A stretch of 64,000 bases of DNA from Acidimicrobiaceae bacterium (GTDB lineage Bacteria; Actinomycetota; Acidimicrobiia; Acidimicrobiales; RAAP-2): the NCBI GenBank assembly GCA_003158855.1, contig PMLJ01000012.1, forward strand, positions 1,516 through 65,515, in the 5' to 3' direction. The notes below the pieces were generated by a model. The model did no database searches and was not told the origin of the DNA. It saw nothing but the letters and a program-made list of their open reading frames with translations. Made by a program: the position numbers and the translations under genes. Positions 7,135 to 48,717 of the stretch are shown in pieces; position 1 is the stretch's first letter; every line of letters begins with the position of its first letter.

Positions 7135-9582
7135 CTACCTGCGGGCGTTTCGGCGCCTCCGCAGGACGAACCACGACGTCACGAGCAACGCCACCGTCGC
7201 CACGTCGCTGATGACGTTGCCGAGCACGAGCGCCGGGGTGCTTCCGTAGGTCAGCGAGACGTCGCGCGACGTCGGAACGACGACCATGAGGTTGGGGCTC
7301 ACCCGGTACGGGCCCGTGGCGCCCGAGGCGTGCCAGCGCGGGTAGTACGAGATCTTCACGAGCACCGGCACCCCGACCCGGCTCACGTGGAACGAGACCG
7401 TCTGGGTGCCCACGTGAACATCGGTGACCGTCACGGCGGGCAGGCGCCGCGTGGTCTTCATGTGGCTGACCGAACTCACGCGCGGCCACGAGCTCGGGCC
7501 GCTCTCGGCGGCGAGCACCGACCATGCGTCTTTCTGGAGCCACCAGGTCTCGTTGGCGCTGAGCCACTGGACGCGACTGCCTATCGCGGCCACGACGTTG
7601 GGCGAGTACGCGAGCGGCTGGACCACGGGGCTGTCCTTGATCAGATAGATCCGCCACGTATCGCCCGGCGACGGCCAGTGCCTGGTCGTGGCGACGAGCT
7701 TCAGCTCCGGGTCGTTGTTGGCTTCGGAGACGGCGTTGGACGAGTACGCGATGTAGTACTTGACGCCCAGCATCTGCAGGTGCTGCACTCCCTCGACGAC
7801 GTCGAGCGACCCGTAGTTGAGTCCGCTCTCGGGATTGCTCGGCGACGCGCTGAGCTCGGCCTGATCCAAGAAGTGGTAGGGGGCCGTGGGCGACGACTCG
7901 AAGAACAGCCCCTCCATCGAGTCAACGCAGTTGTTGGTCCAGTAGGGCAGGAGCATGAGGGCTTCGGGCGTGCCGAAGCGATTCTGGTTCGCGTTGTATT
8001 CCCACATCGCCCTACCGCAGCCGTAGCGCCGGGCGACCTTCGCCATGGTGACCATGATGTCGTGGTACTCCGGCCACGCCGGCTTCGCCTGGTAGCCCGA
8101 GTAGTTCCACGCCGCCCAGCTCGTGACCTGATTGCCCGACGTATCGAGGTGCAGGTCCTTCGCCACAGGTGGTATCAGGCCCGGCACGGTCGAGAGCAGG
8201 CCCAGCAGGGCGACGAATGCGGTCGCCTGGAAGGTGCGCCGCGCCGCGCGAACCTGCTCGCTCGCGACTCGGTCCTGCGCGGACTCTTCGAAACGCAACT
8301 GGTCGTAGATCGCGAAATCGTCGAACTGGACGTCGAGCTCGCGGGGCTCGTCTGCTGCGTCGACGCTCACGTAGTCAATGCGGTCGCCCTCCAGGTACCG
8401 AACCTCGAACCCACGTCTCCTCTTTCGCCTGATCCACCTCATCGCCACGTAGCCAACGAGCCAGCCCGCGATGAGGTGGATCGAGATGAACCAGAAGGGC
8501 ACGAACCGCTCGTTCCAGAGCGCGCTCTGGGGATCGAAGACGTAGGCGAGGAAGGAGAGGACCGTGAGGGTCGCGAGCACCATTCCGAGGCGGTCGCGCA
8601 CGACGAAGGCCAGGACGATGGCGACGCCCGCCAGGATGATCACCCACCGGTCGCCGCCCGCGGTGATGGCCCCCGTGGTGGGATCGCGAAAGTACCAGCC
8701 GAGCTGGGCGAAGATCTGCTTCAGGTCGCTGACGTTCTGGTTGGTGTAGCCCATGGAGTTCGTGAGGCTCTGGGAGGTGGCGAACGAGACCAGCCACCAC
8801 GCGCTGAGGGCGAACGAGAGAATCCCCGCGCCGACGGCGAAGCGCACCGGGCGCGCGTAGTCTCCACGGGCCATGTCGAGGTCGCTCGGGTCCCCGATGC
8901 CGCGTCGCTGCAGCAGCTCGAAGACAACGAGCACGCCCACCGCGCCGACCGTGAACATCCAGGGCAGGATGTGCGACGCCAGCGTCGCGCTCAGACCGAG
9001 CGCCGCCCACCAGTAGCCCCGCCCCGTCCTCACGCCCCGGGCGAACAGACCGATGGTCAGGAGGCTCAACGCCAACGACAGCGAGAACGAGTACTCCCCC
9101 GCCATGGTCGAGAAGAGGTTCCCACCGTCGATCGTGAATGAGGCGTCGAAGAGGAACGGCAGGGTCGCGACGGCGAGCGCGGCGGGAATCGGTCGAGGGG
9201 CCCGGAAGAGCCGGCCCATCGCGTACGCGGTGATCGGCATCAGCACCGAGCCGAGGATCGTCGCCAGCTTGAAGGCGACGGCGAAGTTGATGACGTAGCT
9301 CGCCCACGTCGCGAGCACGTCGGGCAGGACGAAGTAATAGGTGTACGCGGGCATTCCCGCGAACCAACCGGGGTACCAGGGGGTGAGGTTGAAGAGGTTG
9401 CCCTGGGTCTGCAGGTACGCCGGCAGCGCCAGGTGCGAGCCCGTGTCGCCCCCGGTGATAAGGGTGGAGGAAAAGACCATCGAAGGGTGCAGCGACCAGA
9501 CGGTGACGTAGATCACGGCGAAGACCACGACCGCGTCGAAGGCCCCCGCCGGCGTCCAGATGTCCTTCAGCCGCCGGATCAT
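7135..9582 (-). CDS. Large polytopic membrane protein, PTPS-related/GT-C-like glycosyltransferase
   Basis: GGDTGSH and WYPGWFAGMP..TYY N-terminal loop, about 12 TM segments, extracytoplasmic domain, YfhO-like C-terminus. TGATG overlap with the upstream gene. Confidence 0.75.
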   Translation of the reverse strand: MIRRLKDIWTPAGAFDAVVVFAVIYVTVWSLHPSMVFSSTLITGGDTGSHLALPAYLQTQGNLFNLTPWYPGWFAGMPAYTYYFVLPDVLATWASYVINFAVAFKLATILGSVLMPITAYAMGRLFRAPRPIPAALAVATLPFLFDASFTIDGGNLFSTMAGEYSFSLSLALSLLTIGLFARGVRTGRGYWWAALGLSATLASHILPWMFTVGAVGVLVVFELLQRRGIGDPSDLDMARGDYARPVRFAVGAGILSFALSAWWLVSFATSQSLTNSMGYTNQNVSDLKQIFAQLGWYFRDPTTGAITAGGDRWVIILAGVAIVLAFVVRDRLGMVLATLTVLSFLAYVFDPQSALWNERFVPFWFISIHLIAGWLVGYVAMRWIRRKRRRGFEVRYLEGDRIDYVSVDAADEPRELDVQFDDFAIYDQLRFEESAQDRVASEQVRAARRTFQATAFVALLGLLSTVPGLIPPVAKDLHLDTSGNQVTSWAAWNYSGYQAKPAWPEYHDIMVTMAKVARRYGCGRAMWEYNANQNRFGTPEALMLLPYWTNNCVDSMEGLFFESSPTAPYHFLDQAELSASPSNPESGLNYGSLDVVEGVQHLQMLGVKYYIAYSSNAVSEANNDPELKLVATTRHWPSPGDTWRIYLIKDSPVVQPLAYSPNVVAAIGSRVQWLSANETWWLQKDAWSVLAAESGPSSWPRVSSVSHMKTTRRLPAVTVTDVHVGTQTVSFHVSRVGVPVLVKISYYPRWHASGATGPYRVSPNLMVVVPTSRDVSLTYGSTPALVLGNVISDVATVALLVTSWFVLRRRRNARR

Positions 9583-10331
9583 CAGTGGCCCGATCTCTGG
9601 GCGATCAAGGAGACCATCGCAACGGCGTTGAACGAGACGTGGGTAATGATGCTCGGGGTGAGGCGTTGGGTGCGCTTCACCACGACCGCCAGGACCACGC
9701 CGAGAAGCGCGAGCCCCGCGAACTGCAGTGGCTCGCCGTGCGCCAGGGCGAAGAGGCACGCGCTCAGCAGCACCGCGGCGACCGTCCCGGCGCGCGCGAG
9801 CGACTTCGAGAGCCCGGCGTCGAGGGCCCTGAAGAGAACACCGCGAAAGAACCACTCCTCGACGATCGGCGCCCCCACGGTCGTCATGAGCGCCACGAGC
9901 ACGAACGTTGCGCCGTGGGCCGAACCGAAGAGGTGGTTCACTGGCTTCTGGAGGTGTTTGAAGTGAAAGGGCGCGTAGATCAGGTCAATGACGATCTGGC
10001 ACGCGACCCCGAGCACGGCGAAGAGAACGTCGGTCGGGCGCAGCGTCCACTGGTGCTCGAGGGGGGGAAGGTCTCCCTGCGTTCTGGAGAAGAAAATCGC
10101 CGCGCCAAAGCCCACCCAGAGACCGATCAGGCCGAGCGCGTTCGACCACCACGGCGGCTCGGTGAGCTTCGAGAGGGCGCCCAGGCCTCCGGGGAAATGG
10201 GCCAGCTGGGCGCCGACATCGATCAGCAACGTCGCGACGATGTTGCCCAGCACGTACCCGGCGAGGCAGCCTACGAAGATCGCCACGGCGCGTGGCTGAT
10301 TCTTAGAATCCGTCGGCGATAATGAAGTCAC
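9582..10331 (-). CDS. CPBP/CAAX (Abi) intramembrane glutamic endopeptidase
   Basis: PIVEEWFFRG, FALAH and SIITHVSFN motifs. Confidence 0.92.
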   Translation of the reverse strand: MTSLSPTDSKNQPRAVAIFVGCLAGYVLGNIVATLLIDVGAQLAHFPGGLGALSKLTEPPWWSNALGLIGLWVGFGAAIFFSRTQGDLPPLEHQWTLRPTDVLFAVLGVACQIVIDLIYAPFHFKHLQKPVNHLFGSAHGATFVLVALMTTVGAPIVEEWFFRGVLFRALDAGLSKSLARAGTVAAVLLSACLFALAHGEPLQFAGLALLGVVLAVVVKRTQRLTPSIITHVSFNAVAMVSLIAQRSGH

Positions 10332-10357
10332 TAGCCTTTACGCTAACAACTCAAGTG

Positions 10358-10366
10358 TTATCCACA
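10358..10366 (+). promoter_or_regulatory. Perfect DnaA box (TTATCCACA) in the CPBP/ftsH divergent intergenic region
   Basis: Exact match to the 9-mer consensus in a 78-bp intergenic gap; only a single box was seen. Confidence 0.4.
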
Positions 10367-10409
10367 GGCCCCAGTCCGCCTGTAGCAGTTCACCCCTAGA
10401 TTGGAGAGC

Positions 10410-12416
10410 GTGAGTACACCACCAACTGAAAAATCCGGCCTGAAGAAGTTCCTTCCAGGCGGCGACAAACCCATGGCGCCCGAGTCGCGCCGGCGCTTGA
10501 TCACGATCGCCATCGTGGCATTCGTGCTCGGGATACTGATCATTCCTTCGCTCTTCTCGAACAAGACCGTCAAGACCATCTCCTATTCCGCCCTGATCCA
10601 CGACGCCCGTCACTCTCAAGTGATTTCGGCGAGCATCAACACCTCCTCGGGCGTCATCACGGGCCAGTTGAGCAATGGCACCAACTACACCGCCAACGGA
10701 CCCGCTCCCATCCTCACCGACGAGGTCAGCACCTTTCAAACCAACAACGTCGTGGTGACCTTCGCCAATCCTTCGAGTTTCGCCTCCACCTTCCTCCCGT
10801 ACCTCATCTGGATCCTCATCTTCGTCGGATTCTTCGTTTTCGCGAACCGCCAGGCGAAGGGCCAGATGAACGGGATGATGTCCGTTGGCCGCTCCAAGGC
10901 CAAGCAGTTCAGCGAGGATCGCCCCAAGACCACCTTTGCTGACGTTGCCGGGTATCTGGGGGTCAAACAGGAGATCAGCGAGGTCGTCGAGTTCCTGAAG
11001 ACTCCCGCTCGCTACAAGGAGATCGGCGCCTTGATCCCCAAGGGAATCCTGCTCGTCGGCCCTCCCGGCACCGGCAAGACGATGCTGGCGCGCGCGGTCG
11101 CGGGCGAGGCGGGCGTCCCCTTCTTCTCGGTCTCGGGATCTGACTTCATGGAGATGTTCGTCGGCGTCGGCGCGAGCCGTGTCCGCGACCTCTTCGCCAC
11201 CGCCCGCAAGCAGTCGCCCGCGATCGTCTTCATCGACGAGATCGACTCCATTGGCCGCAAGCGTGGCGCGGGCGTCGGGGGCGGTCACGACGAGCGCGAG
11301 CAGACGCTCAACCAGATGTTGAACGAGATGGACGGCTTCGACCCCACCGAGGGCGTCGTCGTCATCGCCGCGACGAACCGGCCCGACGTGCTGGATCCGG
11401 CGCTGCTGCGTCCGGGCCGCTTCGACCGACAGATCGTTGTTCCCCTGCCCGACCTCGAAGAGCGCCTGCCCATCCTCCAGGTCCACGCCAAGGGCAAGCC
11501 GCTCGACCCCTCAGTGGACCTCGAGATGGTGGCCCGCGGGACGCCCGGGATGAGCGGCGCGGACCTGGCGAACCTCGTCAATGAAGCGGCCCTGCACGCG
11601 GTGCGCCGCCACTCTGAGACCATTGGCATGGAGGATTTCGAATCCGCCCGCGACCGGGTGATGATGGGCCAGCTGCGCGACACCATGGTGCTGAACGACG
11701 AGGAGCGCCAGCGCATCGCCTTCCACGAGAGCGGCCACGCGCTGCTCTCCTACGTCCTGCCCAAGACCGACCCCCTGCACAAGATCACGATCATCCCCAG
11801 GGGCATGGCCCTCGGCGTGACGATGACGCTGCCCGAAGAGGACCGCCACATCATGTCGCGCGAGCACCTCGAGGATTCACTCTGCATGCGCATGGGCGGA
11901 CGCGTCGCGGAGCTGCTCGTCTACGGCGACCTCTCGACGGGCGCCGCGGACGACCTGCAGCGCAACACCGAACTGGCCCGGCGCATGGTGCGCGAGTGGG
12001 GCATGTCGAAGGAGATCGGGCCAATGGCGTGGGGCGCCAACAACCAGGTGTTCCTGGGCGAGGACCTCATGCACACGCGCGACTACTCCGACCACACCTC
12101 CCAGGTAATCGACGATGAGGTTGAACGCATCCTGCGCGAGCAAGAGGCCCGGGCCATCGAAGTCCTCACGCTGCACCGCCGGGGCCTCGAGGCCGTGACC
12201 AGCGCGCTGCTCGAGCACGAAACCCTGGACGGCGAAACCGCGGCCCGTCTCATTGACGAGGCCCACGGCGAACCGGTGCACGCCCACGGAACCAAGACCG
12301 TGAGTTCACTCACTGGCGTCAACCGGGCCGTGGCCAAGAGCCCCAAGCCCGAGCCGGCGCTTTCGCCGGTCGCGACGACGCCGAACTGGCAGCCGCCTAC
12401 CCTACCCGCCGTCTAG
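10410..12416 (+). CDS. ftsH: ATP-dependent zinc metalloprotease FtsH
   Basis: Two TM helices, [17 protein letters not shown] ([20 protein letters not shown]), HESGH. GTG start with GGAGAG SD. Confidence 0.97.
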
Positions 12417-41001: not shown

Positions 41002-41898
41002 ATGCAAATTATGACCGACTCCGCGTACGACGAATTCGCCCTGTTCCACGAGAACATGAGCGAGTGGAACCTGCAGGGCCCGGTCCCGCCGGTTCGCCGT
41101 TTCTTCGTGGCCGTGGACGGGCTTCGCCAGTTGAGCGGACTGCAGTGGGGTGAGGGCGAACCCGAACTGGTCCTGGTGCACGGCGGCGCTCAGAACGCCC
41201 ACACCTTCGACACGGTCGCCCTGGCGCTGCGTCGTCCGCTCATCGCCATCGACCTTCCCGGACACGGACACTCGGACGGCTCCCCCTACGGCGGATCGCC
41301 GATCATGAGCCACGCCACTGACCTCATCGCCGCGCTCAAGCCTCTGCTGCACGGCCCGCGTCCGCTCGTGGGCATGTCGCTCGGGGGCCTCGTGTCGCTC
41401 GTCGTCGCCCACAAACGTCCCGACCTGGTGAGTTCACTGGTCCTGATCGACATCACGCCCGGGGTCAACGCCGACAAGGCCAGGCACATCACCGACTTCG
41501 TGAACGGACCGGCCTCGTTCGACGACCTCGACGCGCTGCTCGAACGGACCATCGAGCACAACCCCACCCGATCGGTGTCGTCGCTGCGTCGAGGCATCTT
41601 GCACAACGCCGTGCAGCGAAGCGACGGCACGTGGGTGTGGCGACACCAGCGGCACCCGAGGTCCGAGCTCGTCGCCCCAGACGTCGGCGACCTATGGGCC
41701 AAGCTCGAAGAGCTGAAGATGCCGGTCACGCTGCTGCGCGCAATGGCCGCGGGCTCGGTCGTCGATGACGAGGATGAGGCCGAGTTGCTGCGGCGCTGCC
41801 CCCACGCGCGGGTGGTCCACGTCGCCGGAGCCGGCCATTCGATCCAGGGCGACGCCCCTTTGGAGCTCGCGGCGCTCTTAAACCGCTTCTGCGTCTAG
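41002..41898 (+). CDS. Alpha/beta fold hydrolase
   Basis: HGG, DLPGHGHS, GMSLGG nucleophile elbow and AGHSIQGD motifs. Start 41002 or 41011. Confidence 0.9.
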   Translation: MQIMTDSAYDEFALFHENMSEWNLQGPVPPVRRFFVAVDGLRQLSGLQWGEGEPELVLVHGGAQNAHTFDTVALALRRPLIAIDLPGHGHSDGSPYGGSPIMSHATDLIAALKPLLHGPRPLVGMSLGGLVSLVVAHKRPDLVSSLVLIDITPGVNADKARHITDFVNGPASFDDLDALLERTIEHNPTRSVSSLRRGILHNAVQRSDGTWVWRHQRHPRSELVAPDVGDLWAKLEELKMPVTLLRAMAAGSVVDDEDEAELLRRCPHARVVHVAGAGHSIQGDAPLELAALLNRFCV

Positions 41899-41907
41899 AT
41901 ACCTGGG

Positions 41908-41980
41908 CTGGCGGGGGAGGGCTCGAACCTCCAACCTACGGATTCAAAGTCCGGCGTTCTGCCAATTGAACTACCCGCCA
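41908..41980 (-). tRNA. tRNA-Gln (anticodon TTG), CCA not encoded
   Basis: TGGCGGG/CCCGCCA acceptor stem, GTTC-AATTGGCA-GAAC D arm, CT-TTG-AA anticodon loop, GGAGG-TTCGAGC-CCTCC T arm; usual position upstream of glmU. Confidence 0.94.
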
Positions 41981-41998: not shown

Positions 41999-42015
41999 TC
42001 TTCAAAGATTCTTAG
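41999..42015 (+). promoter_or_regulatory. TCTTCA-N5-TCTTAG 11-bp-period direct repeat (OmpR/MprA-type box candidate)
   Basis: Upstream of the response regulator. A similar TCTT...TCTTAG occurs at 44142-44159 upstream of the apbE operon. Confidence 0.3.
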
Positions 42016-42086
42016 CGAATGACTTGAGAAGGTTAATACCAACCAGCAACACTAGAGCCTGTAACCCTTATAAAGAAAGCCGCGCC

Positions 42087-42788
42087 GTGACCACAGCTCC
42101 CAGCCTAAAGTCCTACATCGCCATCGTTGACGATGACGGGGCGATCCGGACCGCGCTCGGGCGGGCGCTTCGCATGGAGGACTACGAGGTCGAGCTCTTC
42201 GAGGACGGGATGAGCGCCCTCAAGTCCATTCAGTTGAGGGCCCCCGACGCCATCGTCCTCGACCTCCAACTCCCCGATATCGACGGGTTGGAGATCTGCC
42301 GTCGGATCCGGCGCGCCGGCGACTCGACGCCAATCCTGATGCTCACCGCCCGCGACGCCGTGAACGACCGCGTCGAAGGCCTCGACGTCGGAGCCGACGA
42401 CTACCTCGTGAAGCCCTTCGACCTCGCCGAGTTGCTGGCGCGGTTGCGGGCGCTGCTTCGGCGTCGAAGCGTCGGCGAAGGCGACGAGTTCGTGCTTCGC
42501 TTCGAGGACCTGACCCTCAATCCCCACACCCGCGAGGTTCACCGCGGAGCCCGGAGTATCGAGCTCACGAAGATCGAATTCGATCTGCTCGAGCTGTTCC
42601 TGCAGCACCCGCGCCAGGTGCTCACCCGTGACCAGATCCTCGACCTGGTCTGGGGCTACAACTTCGACTCGGGCACCAACTCCCTCGCCGTCTACATCGG
42701 CTACTTGCGACGCAAGCTCGAAGAGGGTGACGAGGCCCGCCTCATCCAGACCGTGCGCGGTGTTGGATACGCACTTCGCCAGTCGTGA
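42087..42788 (+). CDS. OmpR-family response regulator (MprA-like)
   Basis: IVDDD, VLDLQLP (phospho-Asp), LTAR, DDYLVKPF and winged-helix TVRGVGY motifs. GTG start at 42087. Confidence 0.96.
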   Translation: MTTAPSLKSYIAIVDDDGAIRTALGRALRMEDYEVELFEDGMSALKSIQLRAPDAIVLDLQLPDIDGLEICRRIRRAGDSTPILMLTARDAVNDRVEGLDVGADDYLVKPFDLAELLARLRALLRRRSVGEGDEFVLRFEDLTLNPHTREVHRGARSIELTKIEFDLLELFLQHPRQVLTRDQILDLVWGYNFDSGTNSLAVYIGYLRRKLEEGDEARLIQTVRGVGYALRQS

Positions 42789-44131
42789 CCTTTCGAAGCC
42801 GCGTCATCGCCGCCACCGTCGCGGCGGCTGCCCTCGCGGTCGTTCTGGCCTGCCTCGCCTCGTTTGTCAGCACGCGCAGCGCCCTCATGCACTCGGTGGA
42901 CGAGTCGCTCCTCCAGGCCTCCCACGGACCCATCAACGCCGACGGCGCTGACGATACCCACTACGGTTCCTTCACCGAACTGGTCCTCGCGAACGGGCAG
43001 ACCATCCCGACGTCGGGCGTCCCCATTGACGACACGATTCGCTCATACGCGAAGGGCAAGTCCGGCCAAGTGCTTCGCACCGTTGAAATCGGCAACCAGT
43101 GGTACCGCGAACTGATCGTGCCCCTGCCCGCCAAGTCGCTCGTCAGCTGTTCTTCCGGAATCTGCGAGATCAAGTCCACGTCCGCCCAGCTCTACGTCGT
43201 GAACGTGACGGGCCAGGTCAGCGAACTAAGGAAGCTCGTACGGACCTTGCTGCTCGTCGCGGCGGGAGGACTACTGCTGGCGCTCGCGCTCGGCGTGATC
43301 CTCGCCCGCGCGGCCCTTCATCCGCTCGAGGAGGTCACGGACGAGATTGAGACGATCACCGAGACCAGTGACATGCGTCGTCGGCTCGAAGAGGGCGACG
43401 CCGACGAGCTGGGTCGGCTGCGCCGGGTCTTCAACCGGCTCTTGAGCTCGGTCGAGAGCAGCCAGAACCTCCAACGCCAGCTGGTGCTCGACGCGAGCCA
43501 CGAGCTGCGCACCCCCCTCACGTCGCTGCGCACGAACGCGCAGGTGCTGTCGCGGGCCAACGAACTGGACCCCGATGACCTGCGCCAACTCACCAACGAC
43601 ATGGTGACCCAGGTCGACGAGCTGGCGGCACTCGTCACCGATCTGGGCGAGCTCGCGCGCGGCGAACGCAGCGAGGGCGCTATCGACGAGCTGCGGCTCG
43701 ACGAGTGCGTCGACGAGTGCGTCGACACCGCCAGAACGTACGCGCGGATCAAGGACATCTCGATCGACGCCACCGTCGAGCGCTCGACGGTGCTGGGCCG
43801 GCGCGACCGGCTCATCCGCGCGGTGAGCAACCTGCTCACGAACGCCGTGAAGTTCACCCCGGTCGGCGGCCAGATTCACGTCGCGTCCCACGGCGGCACC
43901 ATCAGCGTGAGCGACAGCGGACCGGGCATCAGCGACGAGGACCTGCCCTACGTCTTCAATCGGTTCTGGCGTTCGGCGTCGTCGCGCTCGCTGCCCGGGT
44001 CCGGATTGGGCCTCTCCATCGTGGCCCAGGTGGTCGCGGAGTTCCAGGGTACCGTCTCGGTCGATCGCGATCCCGTCCTCGGCGGCGCACGTTTCACGGT
44101 GACCCTGCCCACTCCCGCATTCGAAGAGTAA
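42785..44131 (+). CDS. HAMP-containing sensor histidine kinase (MprB-like)
   Basis: Two TM helices, HAMP, DASHELRTP, NAVKF, DSGPGI, GSGLGL; GTGA overlap with the regulator. Confidence 0.96.
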   Translation: MTFRSRVIAATVAAAALAVVLACLASFVSTRSALMHSVDESLLQASHGPINADGADDTHYGSFTELVLANGQTIPTSGVPIDDTIRSYAKGKSGQVLRTVEIGNQWYRELIVPLPAKSLVSCSSGICEIKSTSAQLYVVNVTGQVSELRKLVRTLLLVAAGGLLLALALGVILARAALHPLEEVTDEIETITETSDMRRRLEEGDADELGRLRRVFNRLLSSVESSQNLQRQLVLDASHELRTPLTSLRTNAQVLSRANELDPDDLRQLTNDMVTQVDELAALVTDLGELARGERSEGAIDELRLDECVDECVDTARTYARIKDISIDATVERSTVLGRRDRLIRAVSNLLTNAVKFTPVGGQIHVASHGGTISVSDSGPGISDEDLPYVFNRFWRSASSRSLPGSGLGLSIVAQVVAEFQGTVSVDRDPVLGGARFTVTLPTPAFEE

Positions 44132-44218
44132 CTACGACTCTTCTTGTCGATTTTCTTAGGCCGTAATTGCCGGCTCTTTAGGCGCACGTGCCAGACTCTT
44201 TCTTGAAAGCGAAACCCT

Positions 44219-44530
44219 ATGAGCCCCTCCATTCGAACCCCCCAGCAACGCGACCGCCGATTCGCGCGAGTACGCAATCTGACGATGTCCATCCTTCTGG
44301 GTTCCGGCGTCGCCTCGGCCTTGTTCGTTGGTTACGCCGCGACCACCGCCAAGCCGGTGTCCACCACGACCCCCAGTCCGACGACGTCAAGCACGACGAT
44401 GGCGACGACCACGACCCGCGGATCATCGCACAGCACCTCGTCAACGACGTACTCGCCGCCCACGACCGTGCCGGTCACGGTCACCACCGTCTGCACCACG
44501 ACCCCGTCGGGCACGACGGTTTGCCACTAG
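44219..44530 (+). CDS. Small membrane-anchored Thr/Ser-rich protein with C-terminal Cys pair
   Basis: Basic N-terminus, one hydrophobic helix, low-complexity Thr/Ser/Pro linker, ends VCTTTPSGTTVCH; first gene of the operon. Confidence 0.8.
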   Translation: MSPSIRTPQQRDRRFARVRNLTMSILLGSGVASALFVGYAATTAKPVSTTTPSPTTSSTTMATTTTRGSSHSTSSTTYSPPTTVPVTVTTVCTTTPSGTTVCH

Positions 44531-44537
44531 GTGCCAG

Positions 44538-45440
44538 ATGAACTTCAAGATATGGGGACTCACCGGTTCACTCAACACCGAGCGTGAGGACCAGTTGGCC
44601 TTCGCCGAGGAACGGCTCTGGCACTGGATCGACGCCGTCGACGCCGCGTGCAATCGGTTCCGACTCGACTCGGAGATCACCCGCTTGAATTCGCTCCACG
44701 ACGAGCCCGTCGCAGTGAGCGACACCTTCGCGCTCGCGCTCGACGCCGCGCTTCGCGCGTCGGCAGCCACCGGAGGCCTCTGCGATCCCACGGTGCTCGA
44801 CTCGCTCCTCGCGCTCGGCTACGACCGCGACTACGACGAGCTGGTGACGCAGGTGAACCCCGCCCCGCTCGCGACGAGGCCGTCGCCAGGCCCGCGCGCC
44901 ATCACCTTCGACCGCGTCGAGCAGACCGTGGCGCTCGCTCCGGGTTGCCGGCTGGACCTCGGAGCGAGCGCCAAGGCGCTGGTGGCGGACCTCGTCGCCG
45001 CGGACACCGCCGCGTTCGGAGGGGTCGTCGTCGAGTTGGGCGGCGACGTCGCCGTTCGAGGACGGGGTCCCACAGGACCCTGGGTGATCGGCGTCTCTGA
45101 TTCGCTCACGATCACCGGGGACGAACCCCGAGTCAGCTTCACCAACGGCGGGATCGCGACCTCGTCGTGCGTCACGCGCAGCTGGAACGCGGGCGGAACG
45201 ACCGTGAACCACATCATTGACCCGCGCACCGGCTCGTTCGCCAAAGGGACCTACGCGACCGCGACGGTGAGTGCATCGAGCTGCGTCGTCGCGAATGCCT
45301 TCGCGACCGCCGCCCTCCTGTGGGACGAGGAAGCCGCCTTCCACATCCCCCAGGCCGGCTGGTCCGGCCGGCTGGTGCGCCGCGACGGTAAGGTCGACTT
45401 CGTAGGTGGCTGGCCCTTGGAAGAAACGTTGAATCCATGA
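44538..45440 (+). CDS. apbE: FAD:protein FMN transferase (ApbE family), no signal peptide
   Basis: RFRLDSEITRLN, DPTV, DLGASAK, ELGGDV, ATSS, HIIDPRTG and ANAFATA motifs. Confidence 0.92.
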   Translation: MNFKIWGLTGSLNTEREDQLAFAEERLWHWIDAVDAACNRFRLDSEITRLNSLHDEPVAVSDTFALALDAALRASAATGGLCDPTVLDSLLALGYDRDYDELVTQVNPAPLATRPSPGPRAITFDRVEQTVALAPGCRLDLGASAKALVADLVAADTAAFGGVVVELGGDVAVRGRGPTGPWVIGVSDSLTITGDEPRVSFTNGGIATSSCVTRSWNAGGTTVNHIIDPRTGSFAKGTYATATVSASSCVVANAFATAALLWDEEAAFHIPQAGWSGRLVRRDGKVDFVGGWPLEETLNP

Positions 45441-46129
45441 TAGCACTCACGACGCCATACCTCTGGTACACGACGCGCGCGACCGGCATGGTCGCTCTCA
45501 TCCTCTTCACCCTCGTCGCCTCGCTCGGCACGCTGGTCGCCAACCGGATCGGCGGCACCATCGTCGGTCGCTTCGAGATCAACGAGCTCCACCGCTCGCT
45601 CTCGATGGTGGCGGTGACCTTCCTCGTGATCCACATACTCACGACCGTGCTGGACAGTTACGTGGCCACCGGATGGATATCGGCCTTCGTGCCCATGACG
45701 TCGGCCTACAAGCGACTGGCGGTGGGCATCGGCGCGGTCGCCTTCGACCTGATCCTGGCGGTATGGATCTCGAGCCTGCTCAAGCTGCGCATCGCGAACA
45801 CGACGTGGCGCTTCATCCACTGGTTCAGCTGGATGGGATTCGCGACCGCGCTGGTGCACGGCTACATGACCGGCACCGACAGCCGCTCCGGCTTCGGGCT
45901 CGTCGTGGTCGCCTCATGCGCCGCGGTCGTCGCCTGCGCCGCGTTGTGGCGTTTCTTCGGTCGACCGACCCGGGCGGCGGGGAGAACCGCTCTTTCGCCG
46001 CTCGCGACGACCAAGGCCGGGCCGCGCGCGACGCGCGCGACTCCCGTGCCGCCCCGGGCGGCCCCTCCCGCGTCGCGGCCGTTTCCGACCAGCCCCGCGC
46101 GGCCCGCGAAACAACGAGGCCCGCGGTGA
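45437..46129 (+). CDS. Ferric reductase-like/MsrQ-like di-heme cytochrome b membrane protein
   Basis: WYTTRATG, four His in TM helices (LHRSL, IHILT, WRFIHW, VHGY); ATGA overlap with apbE. Confidence 0.85.
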   Translation: MIALTTPYLWYTTRATGMVALILFTLVASLGTLVANRIGGTIVGRFEINELHRSLSMVAVTFLVIHILTTVLDSYVATGWISAFVPMTSAYKRLAVGIGAVAFDLILAVWISSLLKLRIANTTWRFIHWFSWMGFATALVHGYMTGTDSRSGFGLVVVASCAAVVACAALWRFFGRPTRAAGRTALSPLATTKAGPRATRATPVPPRAAPPASRPFPTSPARPAKQRGPR

Positions 46130-47403
46130 TTCGTCCAAACTCCCTCCCCCGTCTGATGCACGCGGCATCCGACCGTCCACTCACCTTGGCCCTGCACGAG
46201 GCGGCGTTCGCGTCGTCGACGTCGGTGACCTCCCTGCTGGACGAGCTCGAGGCGTCCGGTCTCACGGGACGCGGTGGCGCGGGATTCCCGACCGCGCTAA
46301 AGGCCCGCCTCATTCGCGAACAGCGGGGGCACAACAAATTCATGGTGGTGAACGCCATGGAGGGCGAGCCCGCCTCCCACAAGGATCAGACACTGCTGAG
46401 CGCGAACCCTCACCTCGTGCTCGACGGCGCGGAGTACCTCGCTTCCATGATCGGCGCCAACAACATCGCCGTCTGCGTCGCGCGCGACAACCCCTCGGTG
46501 GTCAATCACGTCGGGCGGGCGATCCACGAGCGCACGAGGCGAAGCTTGCGCGGTCCGAAGCTCGAACTTCACACTCCCCCGTGGCGCTACGTCGCCGGGG
46601 AAGAGTCCGCACTCGTGCACTGGCTGGACGACAACGAGTCGCTGCCCCAGTACCGACCCAACCGCCCTCACATCTTGAAGATCGGCCACGGCCCCGCACT
46701 CGTCGACAACGCCGAGACGTGCGCGAACGTTGGCCTCATCGGACGCTACGGCGCCCAGTGGTACCGCAGCCTCGGCACCGCCGCAACCCCGGGCAGCACC
46801 CTGGTGTCGGTGACGGGCGCGGTGGACCATCCGACGGTCGTCGAGGTCGAACTCGGGACACCGCTTCGCTCGATCCTGGCGACGGCCGGTGCGGACCTCG
46901 ACCCCCAGGCGGTGCTACTCGGGGGCTACGGAGGCAGTTGGCTCGGCGCGTCGCACCTCGACGTCGCCTACGACAACGAGTCGTTGAAGCCCGTCGGGGT
47001 CTCGACGGGCGCCGGGGTGATCGTGGTACTTCCCAGGAGCGCGTGCGGAATCGTCGAGACCCAGCGGATCGTTCACTGGATGGCGAACGAGAGCGCGCGC
47101 CAGTGCGGCCCGTGCGCCTTCGGGCTGCCCGCGCTCGCTGAGGACCTCTCGCACATCGCGCACCAGTCACGCGACCCCAAGGCCGCCCACGTCCGCCTGG
47201 TCGAGCGCTGCGCGGTCATCGAGGGCCGCGGGGCGTGCCGCCACCCCGACGGCGTCATTCGCTTGGTGCGCTCGGCGCTCGAGGTTTTCACCGACGACTT
47301 CTCGAACCACGTACGCGGGTCGTTCTGCAATGGAACGCGCGCGACGAGGCACTTCGCGACCGTTCCGTCGCTCGAGCGAGAGGAGGAGCTCGTATGGGAG
47401 TGA
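46126..47403 (+). CDS. Stand-alone NuoF-like FMN/NAD(P)H-binding Fe-S flavoprotein
   Basis: SGLTGRGGAGFPT, NAMEGEP, YVAGEESA, NAET, SLBB region, ESARQCGPC...GAC. No other nuo genes nearby. Confidence 0.88.
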   Translation: MIRPNSLPRLMHAASDRPLTLALHEAAFASSTSVTSLLDELEASGLTGRGGAGFPTALKARLIREQRGHNKFMVVNAMEGEPASHKDQTLLSANPHLVLDGAEYLASMIGANNIAVCVARDNPSVVNHVGRAIHERTRRSLRGPKLELHTPPWRYVAGEESALVHWLDDNESLPQYRPNRPHILKIGHGPALVDNAETCANVGLIGRYGAQWYRSLGTAATPGSTLVSVTGAVDHPTVVEVELGTPLRSILATAGADLDPQAVLLGGYGGSWLGASHLDVAYDNESLKPVGVSTGAGVIVVLPRSACGIVETQRIVHWMANESARQCGPCAFGLPALAEDLSHIAHQSRDPKAAHVRLVERCAVIEGRGACRHPDGVIRLVRSALEVFTDDFSNHVRGSFCNGTRATRHFATVPSLEREEELVWE

Positions 47404-47642
47404 GACGCCGTTCCGGATCATTCGTGCTGCGGGTGAACCCGATCCTCTGCGACGGGTTCGGGCACTGCGCCGAACTCGCGCCCGAACTCGTGCAGACCGA
47501 CGAATGGGGCTATCCCATCCTGAGGAGCGAGCCGGTGCCCCTCACCGACGCGGGCGCCTACGAATCCGCGCGCTACGCCGAGCGTGGATGTCCGCGCCAG
47601 GCGCTGCACATCCACCGGATCAGCGAGAAGAAGCCTCACTAA
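47394..47642 (+). CDS. Single-cluster [3Fe-4S]-type ferredoxin
   Basis: CDGFGHC....P...WGYP...CPRQAL; the middle Cys of CxxCxxC is replaced by Phe. GAGGAGG SD. Confidence 0.88.
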   Translation: MGVRRRSGSFVLRVNPILCDGFGHCAELAPELVQTDEWGYPILRSEPVPLTDAGAYESARYAERGCPRQALHIHRISEKKPH

Positions 47643-47852: not shown

Positions 47853-47954
47853 ATGGGATCACTAATTAAGAAGCGCCGTAAGCGCATGCGCAAGAAGAAG
47901 CACAAGAAGATGCTGAAGCGAACTCGCTTCCAGCGTCGCGCCGCCGGTAAATAG
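47853..47954 (+). CDS. 30S ribosomal protein bS22 (AURKAIP1/COX24 family), 33 aa
   Basis: Manual translation MGSLIKKRRKRMRKKKHKKMLKRTRFQRRAAGK matches the family signature; too short for the ORF track. Confidence 0.93.
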   Translation: MGSLIKKRRKRMRKKKHKKMLKRTRFQRRAAGK

Positions 47955-47967
47955 CTCTCCTGCGCGC

Positions 47968-48717
47968 CTAACGCGGCGTGGTAGTTGTCTGGCGAAACCG
48001 CACAGTGCCTTCGGGACCGGTCACGTCCCACTGAACGGCGCCGGAATCAAGCCTCCCCTCGAGGAACATCGTCGAACCCGATCCGCAGAGCTCCACGCCG
48101 CGCGAGTACTCGCCGCGCAGCCAATCAAGCGTGCGCGCCAGGCGCGGCTCGACTCTGCGGGCGGCCATTTCGAGATGGTTTCTTCCCATCGGGCGCGCTC
48201 CGTTCGCCACCAACTCGTCGTACGCCTCGTAGCAGCGTCGGGTTTCGACCGAGAAGCTGGGCATCATCAGAGTGACGTCGCGCTTCTCGAAGGAGAGAGG
48301 GGTCAGCTTCTCTCCGGCCCCCTCGACGAGCGCGCGCCCGCCCAGTTGACAGAACGGCACGTCGCCGCCGAGCGTCAGGGCCTCTTCGACGCTGACTCCC
48401 CCGGCCCAGCGAAGCACCGCGCCCGCGTCGGCGCTGCCCCCGCCGAGCCCGCCCCCGGGCGGGATCACCTTCTCGATCGTCACGCCCGCTCGTCGAGCGA
48501 CCAGGCGCAGCGCGCGCGCGACGAGGTTCGTCTCGTCGAGCGGAACGTCGGGGTTCTCTTCGCTGAGCCGCAGGTAGTCGCCGCCGGGCTCGAGCGTCAG
48601 CCGGTCGGCGAAATCGAGCGTCACCATCTCGCTTCGCAGCTCGTGGTACCCGTTGGCGCGAACGCCCGTGATCTCGAGGAACCACGTCAGCTTCGCGGGG
48701 GCCACCAGCTCGATCAT
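47968..48717 (-). CDS. ispE: 4-diphosphocytidyl-2-C-methyl-D-erythritol kinase
   Basis: APAKL, GYHEL, GGGLGGGSADA, GGDVPF and CGSGS motifs; follows rsmA. Confidence 0.93.
   Translation of the reverse strand: MIELVAPAKLTWFLEITGVRANGYHELRSEMVTLDFADRLTLEPGGDYLRLSEENPDVPLDETNLVARALRLVARRAGVTIEKVIPPGGGLGGGSADAGAVLRWAGGVSVEEALTLGGDVPFCQLGGRALVEGAGEKLTPLSFEKRDVTLMMPSFSVETRRCYEAYDELVANGARPMGRNHLEMAARRVEPRLARTLDWLRGEYSRGVELCGSGSTMFLEGRLDSGAVQWDVTGPEGTVRFRQTTTTPR

Follow-up and report, generated by a model that had tools for sequence, protein, structure and literature searches.

Organization of the locus

A 64,000-nucleotide stretch of an Acidimicrobiaceae genome (GenBank assembly GCA_003158855.1, contig PMLJ01000012.1, positions 1,516 to 65,515 of the forward strand), hereafter referred to as the window, harbors at positions 42087 to 47642 a block of seven plus-strand genes which specify, in order, a response regulator, a sensor histidine kinase, a small single-pass protein, a homolog of the flavin mononucleotide (FMN) transferase ApbE, a predicted two-heme cytochrome, a NuoF-like flavoprotein, and a ferredoxin. 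This gene set, identified from the open reading frame (ORF) listing and a reading of the gene junctions, is considered here as a candidate regulated conduit for outward electron transfer. Coordinates are those of the window, and domains were assigned by Pfam and NCBIfam profile searches, as follows:

42087..42788, plus strand: OmpR-family response regulator (Response_reg PF00072, 1.5e-33; Trans_reg_C PF00486, 8.9e-28)
42785..44131, plus strand: sensor histidine kinase (HAMP, HisKA, and HATPase_c by Pfam)
44219..44530, plus strand: small single-pass protein of 103 amino acids (0 Pfam or NCBIfam matches)
44538..45440, plus strand: ApbE-family flavin adenine dinucleotide (FAD):protein FMN transferase homolog (PF02424, 2.9e-40, 138.9 bits)
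45437..46129, plus strand: Ferric_reduct-type (MsrQ-like) membrane protein (PF01794, 26.2 bits)
46126..47403, plus strand: NuoF-like NAD(P)H-binding flavoprotein (Complex1_51K PF01512, 1.8e-33; SLBB PF10531; NADH_4Fe-4S PF10589, 7.8e-15)
47394..47642, plus strand: single-cluster Fer4_15 ferredoxin (PF13459, 29 bits against a cutoff of 22.4)

The last five genes of the block overlap or are separated by no more than 7 nt: the start of apbE lies 7 nt past the stop codon of the small gene, the junction of apbE with the cytochrome gene is an ATGA overlap, and that of the cytochrome gene with the NuoF-like gene is a GTGA overlap, while an alternative GTG start at position 47400 would give the ferredoxin gene a GTGA overlap. 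ORF listing, junctions, and Pfam domains all place the genes where an initial annotation of this DNA had positioned them, and its list of parts was correct.

Conservation and distribution of the module

A species-level scan, in which one genome per species was searched with the NuoF-like protein as the probe, recovered 62 loci with close NuoF-like relatives (61 to 96% identity), almost all of which were labelled Acidimicrobiaceae or Acidimicrobiales and many of which were labelled as palsa, bog, or other environmental samples; in a homolog search with the same protein, all matches listed shared at least 69% identity. Across approximately 60 Acidimicrobiales species, the gene order abhydrolase, response regulator, histidine kinase, small protein, ApbE, cytochrome, NuoF-like protein, ferredoxin, bS22, ispE, and rsmA was kept in essentially every sufficiently long locus, to a degree well beyond what chance would produce, and the block is, therefore, a fixed feature of the Acidimicrobiales lineage.

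A second tier of NuoF-like proteins, with 39 to 47% identity and originating from many other families, was evident in a survey of 401 genomes of the phylum. The combination of ApbE, cytochrome, NuoF-like protein, and ferredoxin was present in 13 of 19 distant loci, and in 12 of these 13 a small protein of the same design, ending exactly in [VTQ]-S-G-G-S-stop, was encoded directly upstream of ApbE. A wider scan identified at least 537 species-level loci with the module core in other Actinomycetota outside the Acidimicrobiales set, the hosts being Gaiellales, Solirubrobacterales, other Thermoleophilia, Streptosporangiaceae, Frankiaceae, Mycobacteriales, and some records labelled Dormibacterota. 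Among 80 of these loci sampled for gene content, 78 encoded the ferredoxin, 77 the cytochrome, 60 ApbE, and 38 an SGGS-ending ORF, with other tips including an internal or duplicated TSGGSG. Because the ferredoxin was found in 78 of 80 loci in each of two distant sets, the donor pair of NuoF-like protein and ferredoxin is a fixed part of the module. Cultured Streptacidiphilus strains carry the full set, with TTTGGS as the small-protein tip, and the same set recurs in differing genomic contexts across the phylum, sometimes in two copies per genome. An FMN_bind domain (PF04205) was detected by Pfam neither in the block nor in approximately 240 related loci. The operon is real, strongly conserved, and widely distributed in Actinomycetota; co-occurrence of its genes, named beforehand by the initial annotation as a check on its reading, is borne out in both the Acidimicrobiales species and the at least 537 further loci.

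Exact-match contigs from two wetland/peat metatranscriptomes cover parts of the response regulator, histidine kinase, cytochrome, NuoF-like, and ferredoxin genes, which represents modest evidence of expression in situ, since DNA carry-over is possible.

Putative donor proteins and predicted di-heme cytochrome

Sites of interest within the coding genes are as follows:

43148-43165, plus strand: Cys motif of the histidine kinase sensor loop, residues C122 to C127, C-x-[ST]-G-x-C
44492..44527, plus strand: codons of the Cys-closed tip C-T-T-T-P-S-G-T-T-V-C-H of the small protein, with T100 at the canonical ApbE acceptor position (two residues after Gly, G+2)
Same gene, plus strand, by residues of the 103-amino-acid product: terminal loop C92-TTTP-S97-G98-T99-T100-V-C102-H103
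45294-45311, plus strand: Mg-site motif ANAFAT of ApbE, with the Mg-ligand Asp replaced by Asn
47089-47115, plus strand: Fe-S motif ESARQCGPC of the NuoF-like protein, with the first Cys replaced by Ala

The NuoF-like protein retains intact FMN-binding (GRGGAGFPT) and NADH-binding (EGEP) motifs, which are conserved among 55 to 59 orthologs, and its best relatives in the PDB are HydB/NuoF-type subunits. Its score of 204 bits against the NuoF equivalog TIGR01959, for which the cutoff is 558.65, identifies it as NuoF-like rather than as NuoF. In 159 of 161 loci, Ala takes the place of the first N3 motif Cys, while C327, C330, and C371 are invariant, for which reason the protein is predicted to hold either a cluster with three Cys and another fourth ligand or a 3Fe-4S cluster. 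The ferredoxin is predicted to bind its single cluster through C19, C25, and C66 (C-x5-C...CP), all three of which are conserved in 57 orthologs. Judged by their sequences, ApbE, the NuoF-like protein, and the ferredoxin are distinct subfamilies.

Four His residues of the membrane protein are conserved in both clades: in 55 to 59 close orthologs and a cross-clade alignment, H66, H128, and H141 are invariant, and H52 is at least 90% conserved. They form the pairs H52/H66 (14 residues apart) and H128/H141 (13 residues apart) on helices 45-72 and 121-149, an arrangement in which His52 and His128 would hold the inner heme and His66 and His141 the outer heme. An AlphaFold2 model based on 30 sequences (predicted local distance difference test score of 80.8, predicted template modeling score of 0.72) comprises five long helices, one short helix, and a disordered Arg/Pro-rich tail. 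The best 10 Foldseek matches of this model against the PDB are all two-heme carriers, namely, SpNOX, STEAP1/2, cytochrome b561, Dcytb, and NOX5, and distant orthologs score 31 to 38 bits against PF01794, which is over the cutoff. The C-terminal tail, predicted to be cytoplasmic by the positive-inside rule, carries a motif conserved in both clades (WR...RPxRAAGRTALSPL) which, by analogy, may serve as a docking site for soluble donors; NOX enzymes carry a fused dehydrogenase domain at the corresponding position of the cytoplasmic tail. Conserved His residues and modelled fold are thus consistent with the two-heme membrane protein of ferric-reductase fold previously proposed, heme binding being a prediction, and the cofactor ligands needed for the accompanying route from NAD(P)H via FMN and Fe-S centers to the ferredoxin and the two hemes are conserved. 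In several clades (L104, L107, L178, and other distant loci), the cytochrome measures approximately 365 amino acids, owing to a C-terminal extension of approximately 190 amino acids with no Pfam match.

The small tail protein

In the small protein, an Arg-rich leader (RTPQQRDRRFARVR) is followed by a single hydrophobic helix, after which a Thr/Ser/Pro stalk extends over approximately 45 amino acids to a terminal Cys loop. Its 53 Acidimicrobiales orthologs share a conserved Arg-rich leader (RTPQQRDRRFARVRRLTQ), a helix followed by A-x-A-KP, a hypervariable Thr/Ser/Pro stalk, and a nearly invariant end, C-[YT]-[TS]-[TS]-[PA]-S-G-x-x-x-C-x, which may also be written as C-x-[ST][ST]-P-S-G-x3-C, the corresponding end in other clades being [ST]-G-G-S-COOH. 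The N-terminal helix and the A-x-A-KP that follows it were recognized by inspection, without a signal-peptide predictor. A motif tally across the 53 orthologs found S97-G98 to be invariant, thereby matching the [S/T]-G core of the ApbE target motif, and S-G or T-G is also present in the tips of other clades. The Cys pair of the tip is likewise invariant in the Acidimicrobiales clade; the "Cys loop" of the initial annotation is formed by C92...C102 and lies at the extreme C-terminus.

In the clades with SGGS tips, the terminal Ser at the acceptor position is essentially invariant, and conservation within the stalk, which is hypervariable elsewhere, peaks at [ST]-G-G-S or VTSGGSG. The leader and helix of the Cys-loop and SGGS proteins are homologous (hhalign probability of 95.9%, E value of 6e-9), with the leader pattern RD-x-x-[LF]-x-R-[VLI]-x-R common to both clades, and the genes lie directly upstream of the ApbE or cytochrome gene. 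These proteins, which match no Pfam family and are annotated in databases as "hypothetical," belong to a family without a name, in which a conserved leader and a single helix precede a stalk that is disordered. The leader has a strong positive charge and the stalk hardly any charge, so that the tip should, by the positive-inside rule, lie outside the cell. A twin-arginine translocation (Tat) signal was considered for the leader and rejected, as the twin Arg is not positionally conserved between clades and the [ST]-R-R-x-F-L-K consensus is not matched.

A tandem second copy of the small gene is present in three Acidimicrobiales loci (L011, 3850-4383; L013, 3799-4383; and L064, 3875-4399), its product having a slightly longer loop, C-TTTTTPSGK...C. 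Where genes are inserted between the small gene and apbE in relatives, they are tandem copies of the small gene.

ApbE and its association with the tail gene

The canonical ApbE motif is D-x-x-[S/T]-G-A-[S/T], of which the last residue takes the FMN; seven residues suffice, terminal positions being best, and within the motif the change of D to A has a minor effect, while G-to-A or A-to-V changes leave a yield of approximately 50% (PMC12052999). The [ST]-G-G-S-COOH ends fit these rules well, and T-P-S97-G98-T99-T100 of the window protein fits less well. The small protein is the best candidate for a flavin carrier.

The window ApbE begins with MNFKIWGLTGSLNTERED and carries no signal peptide as judged by inspection, there being no hydrophobic N-terminus in any ortholog. 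In an alignment that included the Vibrio cholerae, Thermotoga maritima, and Listeria structures, its His225 aligns with the catalytic His257 of V. cholerae and is invariant in 131 of 131 loci. The Asn at the Mg site (see above) is shared across the clade, and the second ApbE of the same genome keeps ADALAT. That the protein is a decayed pseudoenzyme was rejected on these grounds: because the Asn variant is clade-wide and the catalytic His invariant, it represents a distinct subfamily rather than a decayed copy. Cytosolic ApbEs are known from the literature. In most orthologs, apbE starts 4 to 21 nt past the small gene, and it is translationally coupled to that gene in most lineages.

If the two products are enzyme and substrate, their genes should occur together. 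Among 15 loci with no ApbE in the block, 13 still possess the SGGS gene directly before the cytochrome gene. The sole member of a Streptosporangiaceae-like subclade with an ApbE nearby, at a distance of 8 kb, has two paralogous modules side by side in its genome, and five further assemblies combine an ApbE-less module with a complete, ApbE-bearing paralogous module on another contig. ApbE is thus available in trans in at least six cases (assemblies CAVWKF01, CAWKKA01, CAVSRT01, CAVSQI01, CAWBXJ01, and DATELR01), which rescues the failure of co-occurrence only in part. Strict co-occurrence of ApbE and tail gene was rejected. Since the tail gene is kept beside the cytochrome gene where ApbE is missing, the tail protein is tied first to the cytochrome, and the designation "subunit" is supported more firmly than "substrate."

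In the Streptosporangiaceae-like genomes with paralogous modules (L210, 1687-4821 and approximately 8900-11472; L277-L282), the small protein of the ApbE-bearing copy has an internal VVTSGGSGV and a WRD[NSD] end, and the copy devoid of ApbE has a terminal SGGS.

Regulators, noncoding elements, and flanking genes

The response regulator, with its receiver and winged-helix domains, and the kinase, with its HAMP-HisKA-HATPase architecture, form a pair of the OmpR/EnvZ type by Pfam, and neither protein matched an NCBIfam equivalog above the cutoff. The regulator is 81 to 98% identical across the clade. Both genes precede the operon throughout the Acidimicrobiales clade, and a regulator/kinase pair lies nearby in approximately half of the distant loci. 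The kinase has two helices with an extracytoplasmic loop carrying C122-SSGI-C127, and the motif C-x-[ST]-G-x-C recurs in the sensor loop of 36 of 47 orthologs, which suggests redox sensing. There is a loose resemblance between this motif and the S-G loop, likewise closed by Cys, of the small protein.

Two noncoding elements were recognized:

42008..42062, plus strand: element before the response regulator gene, ATTCTTAG, approximately 17 nt, TTAAT, then CCAACCAGCAACACTAGAGCCTG
44152..44198, plus strand: element before the small gene, TTTCTTAG, N17, TTTAG, N8, TG-n-CAGACT

The consensus before the regulator gene is ATTCTTAg, approximately 17 nt, and TTAAtaCCaA.caGC.ACACTAGAGCCTG, with TTCTTA present in 45 of 46 aligned upstream regions, and the element is a candidate autoregulatory operator and promoter. 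Before the small gene, approximately 20 nt from its ATG, the consensus is tTTCTTA-N17-c.TtA-N8-TG.cAgACT; here TTCTTA is present in 45 of 47 aligned intergenic regions, with the full element in 24 by strict pattern, and the whole may be read as a direct repeat 22 bp apart that overlaps the -35 position of an extended -10 promoter. For OmpR-type activators, sites are usually laid out in this way, as a direct repeat spaced by approximately two helical turns that overlaps the -35 position. The TTCTTA-N17-TTA element is common to both upstream regions, and an exact 8-mer of the TTCTTA element occurs once in the window. The regulator probably controls its own gene and also drives the operon; the earlier proposal of two-component regulation is supported by the conserved linkage of the pair and by the common upstream motif.

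An Rfam search of the block detected no riboswitch, of the FMN or any other type. A consensus scan for promoters and terminators returned no sigma-70-like site and terminators at chance level only, such a scan being uninformative for an actinobacterium with 65% GC. The block is flanked by the following features:

41002-41898, plus strand: alpha/beta-hydrolase gene ahead of tRNA-Gln, whose synteny with the block is shared by most related loci
41906-41980, minus strand: tRNA-Gln, the only Rfam match at the block
47853-47954, plus strand: 33-codon ORF between the ferredoxin gene and ispE, its position being kept in nearly all related loci
47968-48717, minus strand: ispE, from the ORF listing

The 33-codon ORF presumably corresponds to the small actinobacterial ribosomal protein bS22, which we take it to resemble. 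A functional tie of the alpha/beta-hydrolase gene to the block is not evident.

Relation to known systems

The "MsrQ-like" flavinylation clusters defined by Méheust et al. (2021, eLife 10:e66878, PMC8238504) number 1797, are mostly actinobacterial, and typically comprise apbE together with an FMN_bind gene; 31 of them contain a NuoF-like gene, some are linked to VIT1 iron transporters, and the authors presented the class as putative electron exporters driven by NAD(P)H. Huang et al. (2024, bioRxiv 10.1101/2024.03.13.584918) discussed MsrQ-like models structurally only and, for FMN_red proteins, confirmed that an unstructured extension at the C-terminus is flavinylated. The block under study has an ApbE gene adjoining that of a PF01794-type two-heme protein (26.2 bits in the window, 31 to 38 bits in orthologs, and a fold match), belongs mainly to Actinobacteria, and includes a PF10589 gene as the presumed entry point for NAD(P)H, thus agreeing with the NuoF-like subtype of this class, as does the proposed outward flow to a flavinylated extracytosolic acceptor. 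It differs in that the published typical (though not obligatory) substrate, FMN_bind (PF04205), is missing from the block, and in that the survey was filtered for ApbE with a signal peptide or for FMN_bind, whereas the window ApbE is signal-less. The survey text consulted makes no mention of a small tail or Cys-loop protein, a ferredoxin partner, an Asn-variant ApbE, a three-Cys NuoF-like cluster, or a two-component system. The architecture, which the initial annotation had regarded as undescribed, is accordingly one already catalogued as MsrQ-like, NuoF-like subtype (PMC8238504), yet its description as functionally uncharacterized holds, and full-text literature searches returned no other paper linking these parts. 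New in the locus are the unnamed small-protein family in place of FMN_bind, the distinct ApbE, NuoF-like, and ferredoxin subfamilies, and the common TTCTTA-N17-TTA element.

A canonical counterpart is encoded elsewhere in the same genome, on contig C15 (L001, 698-3198, minus strand), where a Ferric_reduct-FAD-NAD fusion is accompanied by an anchored Thr/Pro-stalk FMN_bind protein (VSGAS), the only PF04205 match in the genome, and by an ApbE. The two loci share a two-heme ferric-reductase domain, an anchored Thr/Pro-stalk protein as the presumed acceptor, and an ApbE with no signal peptide, so that the pairing of a signal-less ApbE with an exported substrate is not peculiar to the window module. 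In C15, however, cytochrome and NAD(P)H dehydrogenase form a single fused protein, the stalk leads to a folded FMN_bind domain, and ApbE keeps the ADALAT Mg site, whereas the window module is split into NuoF-like protein and ferredoxin, its stalk ends in a 12-residue Cys-closed loop, and its Mg site reads ANAFAT.

In that a terminal [S/T]-G-x-[S/T] peptide, short and unstructured, would be a sufficient target for ApbE, the small protein resembles the engineered Flavin-tag (Tong et al. 2021; PMC12052999) and the FMN_red tails (Huang et al. 2024). Flavin-tags, however, are artificial, and the window motif has neither the Asp nor the Ala and is only putatively flavinylated; the FMN_red tail returns its flavin to a folded flavin site, whereas the small protein has no flavin-binding fold. 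With NOX, STEAP, and MsrQ proteins (SpNOX 8qta, STEAP2 7tai, NOX5 5o0t), the cytochrome shares the transmembrane fold and the two His pairs 13 to 14 residues apart on two helices, but it has no fused FAD/NADPH or F420-type domain, its donor being the separate NuoF-like/ferredoxin pair, and no MsrP partner; relative to NOX, the first helix of the six-helix core is apparently missing. The NuoF-like protein, finally, has the Complex1_51K, SLBB, and NADH_4Fe-4S domains and the FMN and NADH motifs of NuoF, HydB, and HoxF, from which it is set apart by a score far under the NuoF equivalog cutoff, the Ala at Cys1 of N3, and the absence of a NuoE-like partner in the block.

Proposed mechanism

The best explanation of the block as a whole, for which we consider the chances to be evenly balanced, is that it forms one regulated unit and an outward electron conduit of the MsrQ-like, NuoF-like subtype with a flavin-tip small protein. 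Taken on their own, a transmembrane NAD(P)H-driven conduit is probable, and the assignment of the small protein as a subunit of this conduit is quite probable. The conduit would operate outward and independently of quinone. The NuoF-like protein is proposed to oxidize NAD(P)H at a noncovalent FMN and to release single electrons via its variant Fe-S cluster to the three-Cys ferredoxin, after which either the ferredoxin or the NuoF-like protein itself would dock on the cytoplasmic tail of the cytochrome. Electrons would then cross the membrane by way of two b-hemes, that held by His52/His128 and subsequently that held by His66/His141, and would be taken up outside by the tip of the small single-pass protein, a subunit presumably held in place by its leader and helix. 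The tip would carry FMN, phosphoester-linked by the operon-encoded ApbE to a Thr or Ser near S97-G98, most likely T100, and would be closed by a C92-C102 disulfide in the Acidimicrobiales clade, while the Thr/Pro stalk may allow the flavin to reach acceptors in or beyond the wall. The OmpR/kinase pair, with its Cys-pair sensor loop, probably switches on its own promoter and that of the operon via the TTCTTA-N17-TTA repeat. Support for this mechanism is good as far as the outer heme, and whatever follows that point is hypothetical; we infer the direction of flow, flavinylation and its site, the compartment of ApbE, and control by the response regulator.

A number of observations weigh against this proposal. 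The PF01794 score of the window cytochrome lies just under the cutoff of 28, and the Foldseek E values are weak (3.6e-3 to 0.55, at probabilities of 0.96 to 1.0). The G+2 acceptor position is Thr in 33 of 53 orthologs and V, R, Q, F, or L in the others, and, while a Ser or Thr is found somewhere between S-G and the closing Cys in 52 of the 53, one ortholog has none. The window tip T-T-P-S-G-T-T, having no Asp and a variable residue at +1 after Gly, departs from D-x-x-[ST]-G-A-[ST]. The leader does not match the Tat consensus even though the genome encodes TatC, and the signal-less ApbE and the tip predicted to lie outside are on opposite sides of the membrane; flavinylation before export, or some other export route, must therefore be assumed, and this mismatch of compartments is the weakest link of the model. 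The Mg-ligand Asp of A-D-x-x-x-T is Asn in 128 of 131 loci (with N...T kept). In the Streptosporangiaceae-like subclade, 47 of 48 tail-gene loci with full flanks lack an ApbE within 10 kb. The full-text searches turned up no functional study of any member, and nothing in or around the block in the loci examined, such as a linked gene for a reductase, a transporter, or an MsrP-like protein, points to a terminal acceptor. Flavinylation of the tips appears likely in the SGGS clades; because the acceptor position is poorly conserved by comparison, it is rated lower in the Acidimicrobiales clade, where we put it somewhat short of an even chance. The flavinylated surface protein envisaged by the initial annotation thus finds its best candidate in the small protein, whose homologs end in [ST]-G-G-S, albeit with a noncanonical motif at the window tip.

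Alternative explanations

That the conduit is real and the small protein unflavinylated is rather unlikely, in our estimation, and would make the latter an accessory or stabilizing cytochrome subunit comparable to p22phox for NOX2, its tip docking on the outer face or acting through the C92/C102 dithiol-disulfide pair, with ApbE serving another target (the FMN_bind protein of the second locus or a site on the cytochrome or NuoF-like protein). Such a structural partnership is what the conserved leader and helix point to, and the invariance of the Cys pair in the Acidimicrobiales clade, the noncanonical and poorly conserved acceptor position, the signal-less ApbE, and the persistence of the tail gene directly before the cytochrome gene in a large subclade with no neighboring ApbE are all in its favor. 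Against it count the [ST]-G-G-S-like tip, which over hundreds of species is conserved more than any other feature of the family, and the translational coupling of apbE to the small gene in most lineages. A classical FMN_bind substrate does exist elsewhere in the genome, and its ApbE is signal-less too, but that second locus has an ApbE of its own, and no other conserved [ST]GA[ST]-like site was seen by inspection in the cytochrome, NuoF-like protein, or ferredoxin. The notion that these are merely adjacent housekeeping genes with no common function draws on the position of the block amid housekeeping synteny, from tRNA-Gln to ispE; it can practically be dismissed, being already contradicted by the comparative data, in that the genes overlap at their starts and stops and the same set recurs in differing contexts across the phylum, sometimes twice per genome.

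The remaining alternatives concern the acceptor. A split NADPH-oxidase-like enzyme, in which the outer heme or the tip flavin would reduce O2 to superoxide or peroxide outside the cell for signaling, competition, or oxidative chemistry on peat or soil substrates, rather than Fe(III) reduction or protein repair, is suggested by the SpNOX and NOX5 transmembrane domains as best structural matches, by an NAD(P)H flavoprotein that stands in for the fused NOX dehydrogenase domain, by the lack of any encoded acceptor enzyme, and by the many hosts in the Solirubrobacterales, Gaiellales, Streptosporangiaceae, and Streptacidiphilus soil lineages, which are largely aerobic. We regard it as improbable, since STEAP, Dcytb, and b561, which belong to metal and ascorbate systems, match about equally and NOX enzymes have no need of an outer flavin or an ApbE. 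Quite improbable, too, is an extracellular Fe(III)/humic reductase, assimilatory or dissimilatory, as the initial annotation had proposed. The ferric-reductase fold, the VIT1 transporters found with some MsrQ-like clusters (PMC8238504), and relatives that include Ferrimicrobium-like genomes labelled peat, bog, and acid-mine argue for it; against it stand the finding that, in all loci examined, neither the block nor its immediate surroundings contain a gene for an iron transporter or a siderophore or one of the Fur type, control by a Cys-bearing envelope sensor kinase and not an iron regulator, and the wide occurrence of the module in lineages not known for iron respiration. The acceptors named previously (Fe(III), iron uptake, envelope repair) find no backing in linked reductase, transporter, or MsrP-like genes, and the genes inserted after the ferredoxin gene in some relatives (MFS, Pst, PadR, and peptidase) are unrelated. 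Fe(III)/humic reduction, NOX-like O2 reduction, and thiol/disulfide chemistry via the flavin and the Cys pair are all possible activities of the proposed conduit.

A more far-reaching form of the flavin-tip conduit, which we advance as a speculation that is unlikely to hold in its entirety, would see the small proteins as "flavin tags" of natural origin that lack a fold, and hence as ApbE substrates of a new class. FMN would be attached in the cytoplasm by the signal-less Asn-variant ApbE, and the tip would then be threaded across the membrane, with no export of FAD, and the flavin would shuttle, on its tether, between the outer heme and acceptors located within the cell wall or past it. In Acidimicrobiales, the flavin would be enclosed by the disulfide-closed ten-residue loop and form with it a minimal flavin/dithiol relay, which could turn the one-electron chemistry of the hemes into two-electron chemistry, and the kinase that switches the system would sense the same extracytoplasmic redox state via its own Cys-closed loop.

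Implications

MsrQ-like flavinylation clusters are among the commonest uncharacterized extracytosolic electron-transfer systems in Actinomycetota. The locus described here and its relatives represent a coherent, regulated subtype of these clusters, distributed over hundreds of species from soil, peat, and acid environments, among them cultured Streptacidiphilus. A cofactor site can be recognized in each of its redox parts, and the small protein is a concrete candidate for the "missing" flavin acceptor. Should the tip be flavinylated, the range of ApbE substrates would extend to peptides that have no flavin-binding fold, flavinylation in the cytoplasm before export would offer a possible answer to the question of how ApbE is supplied with FAD in monoderms, and the small protein would be a natural counterpart of the engineered Flavin-tag. 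If the tip is not flavinylated, the family would still represent a conserved subunit, as yet without a name, of a transmembrane cytochrome that is widespread and driven by NAD(P)H.

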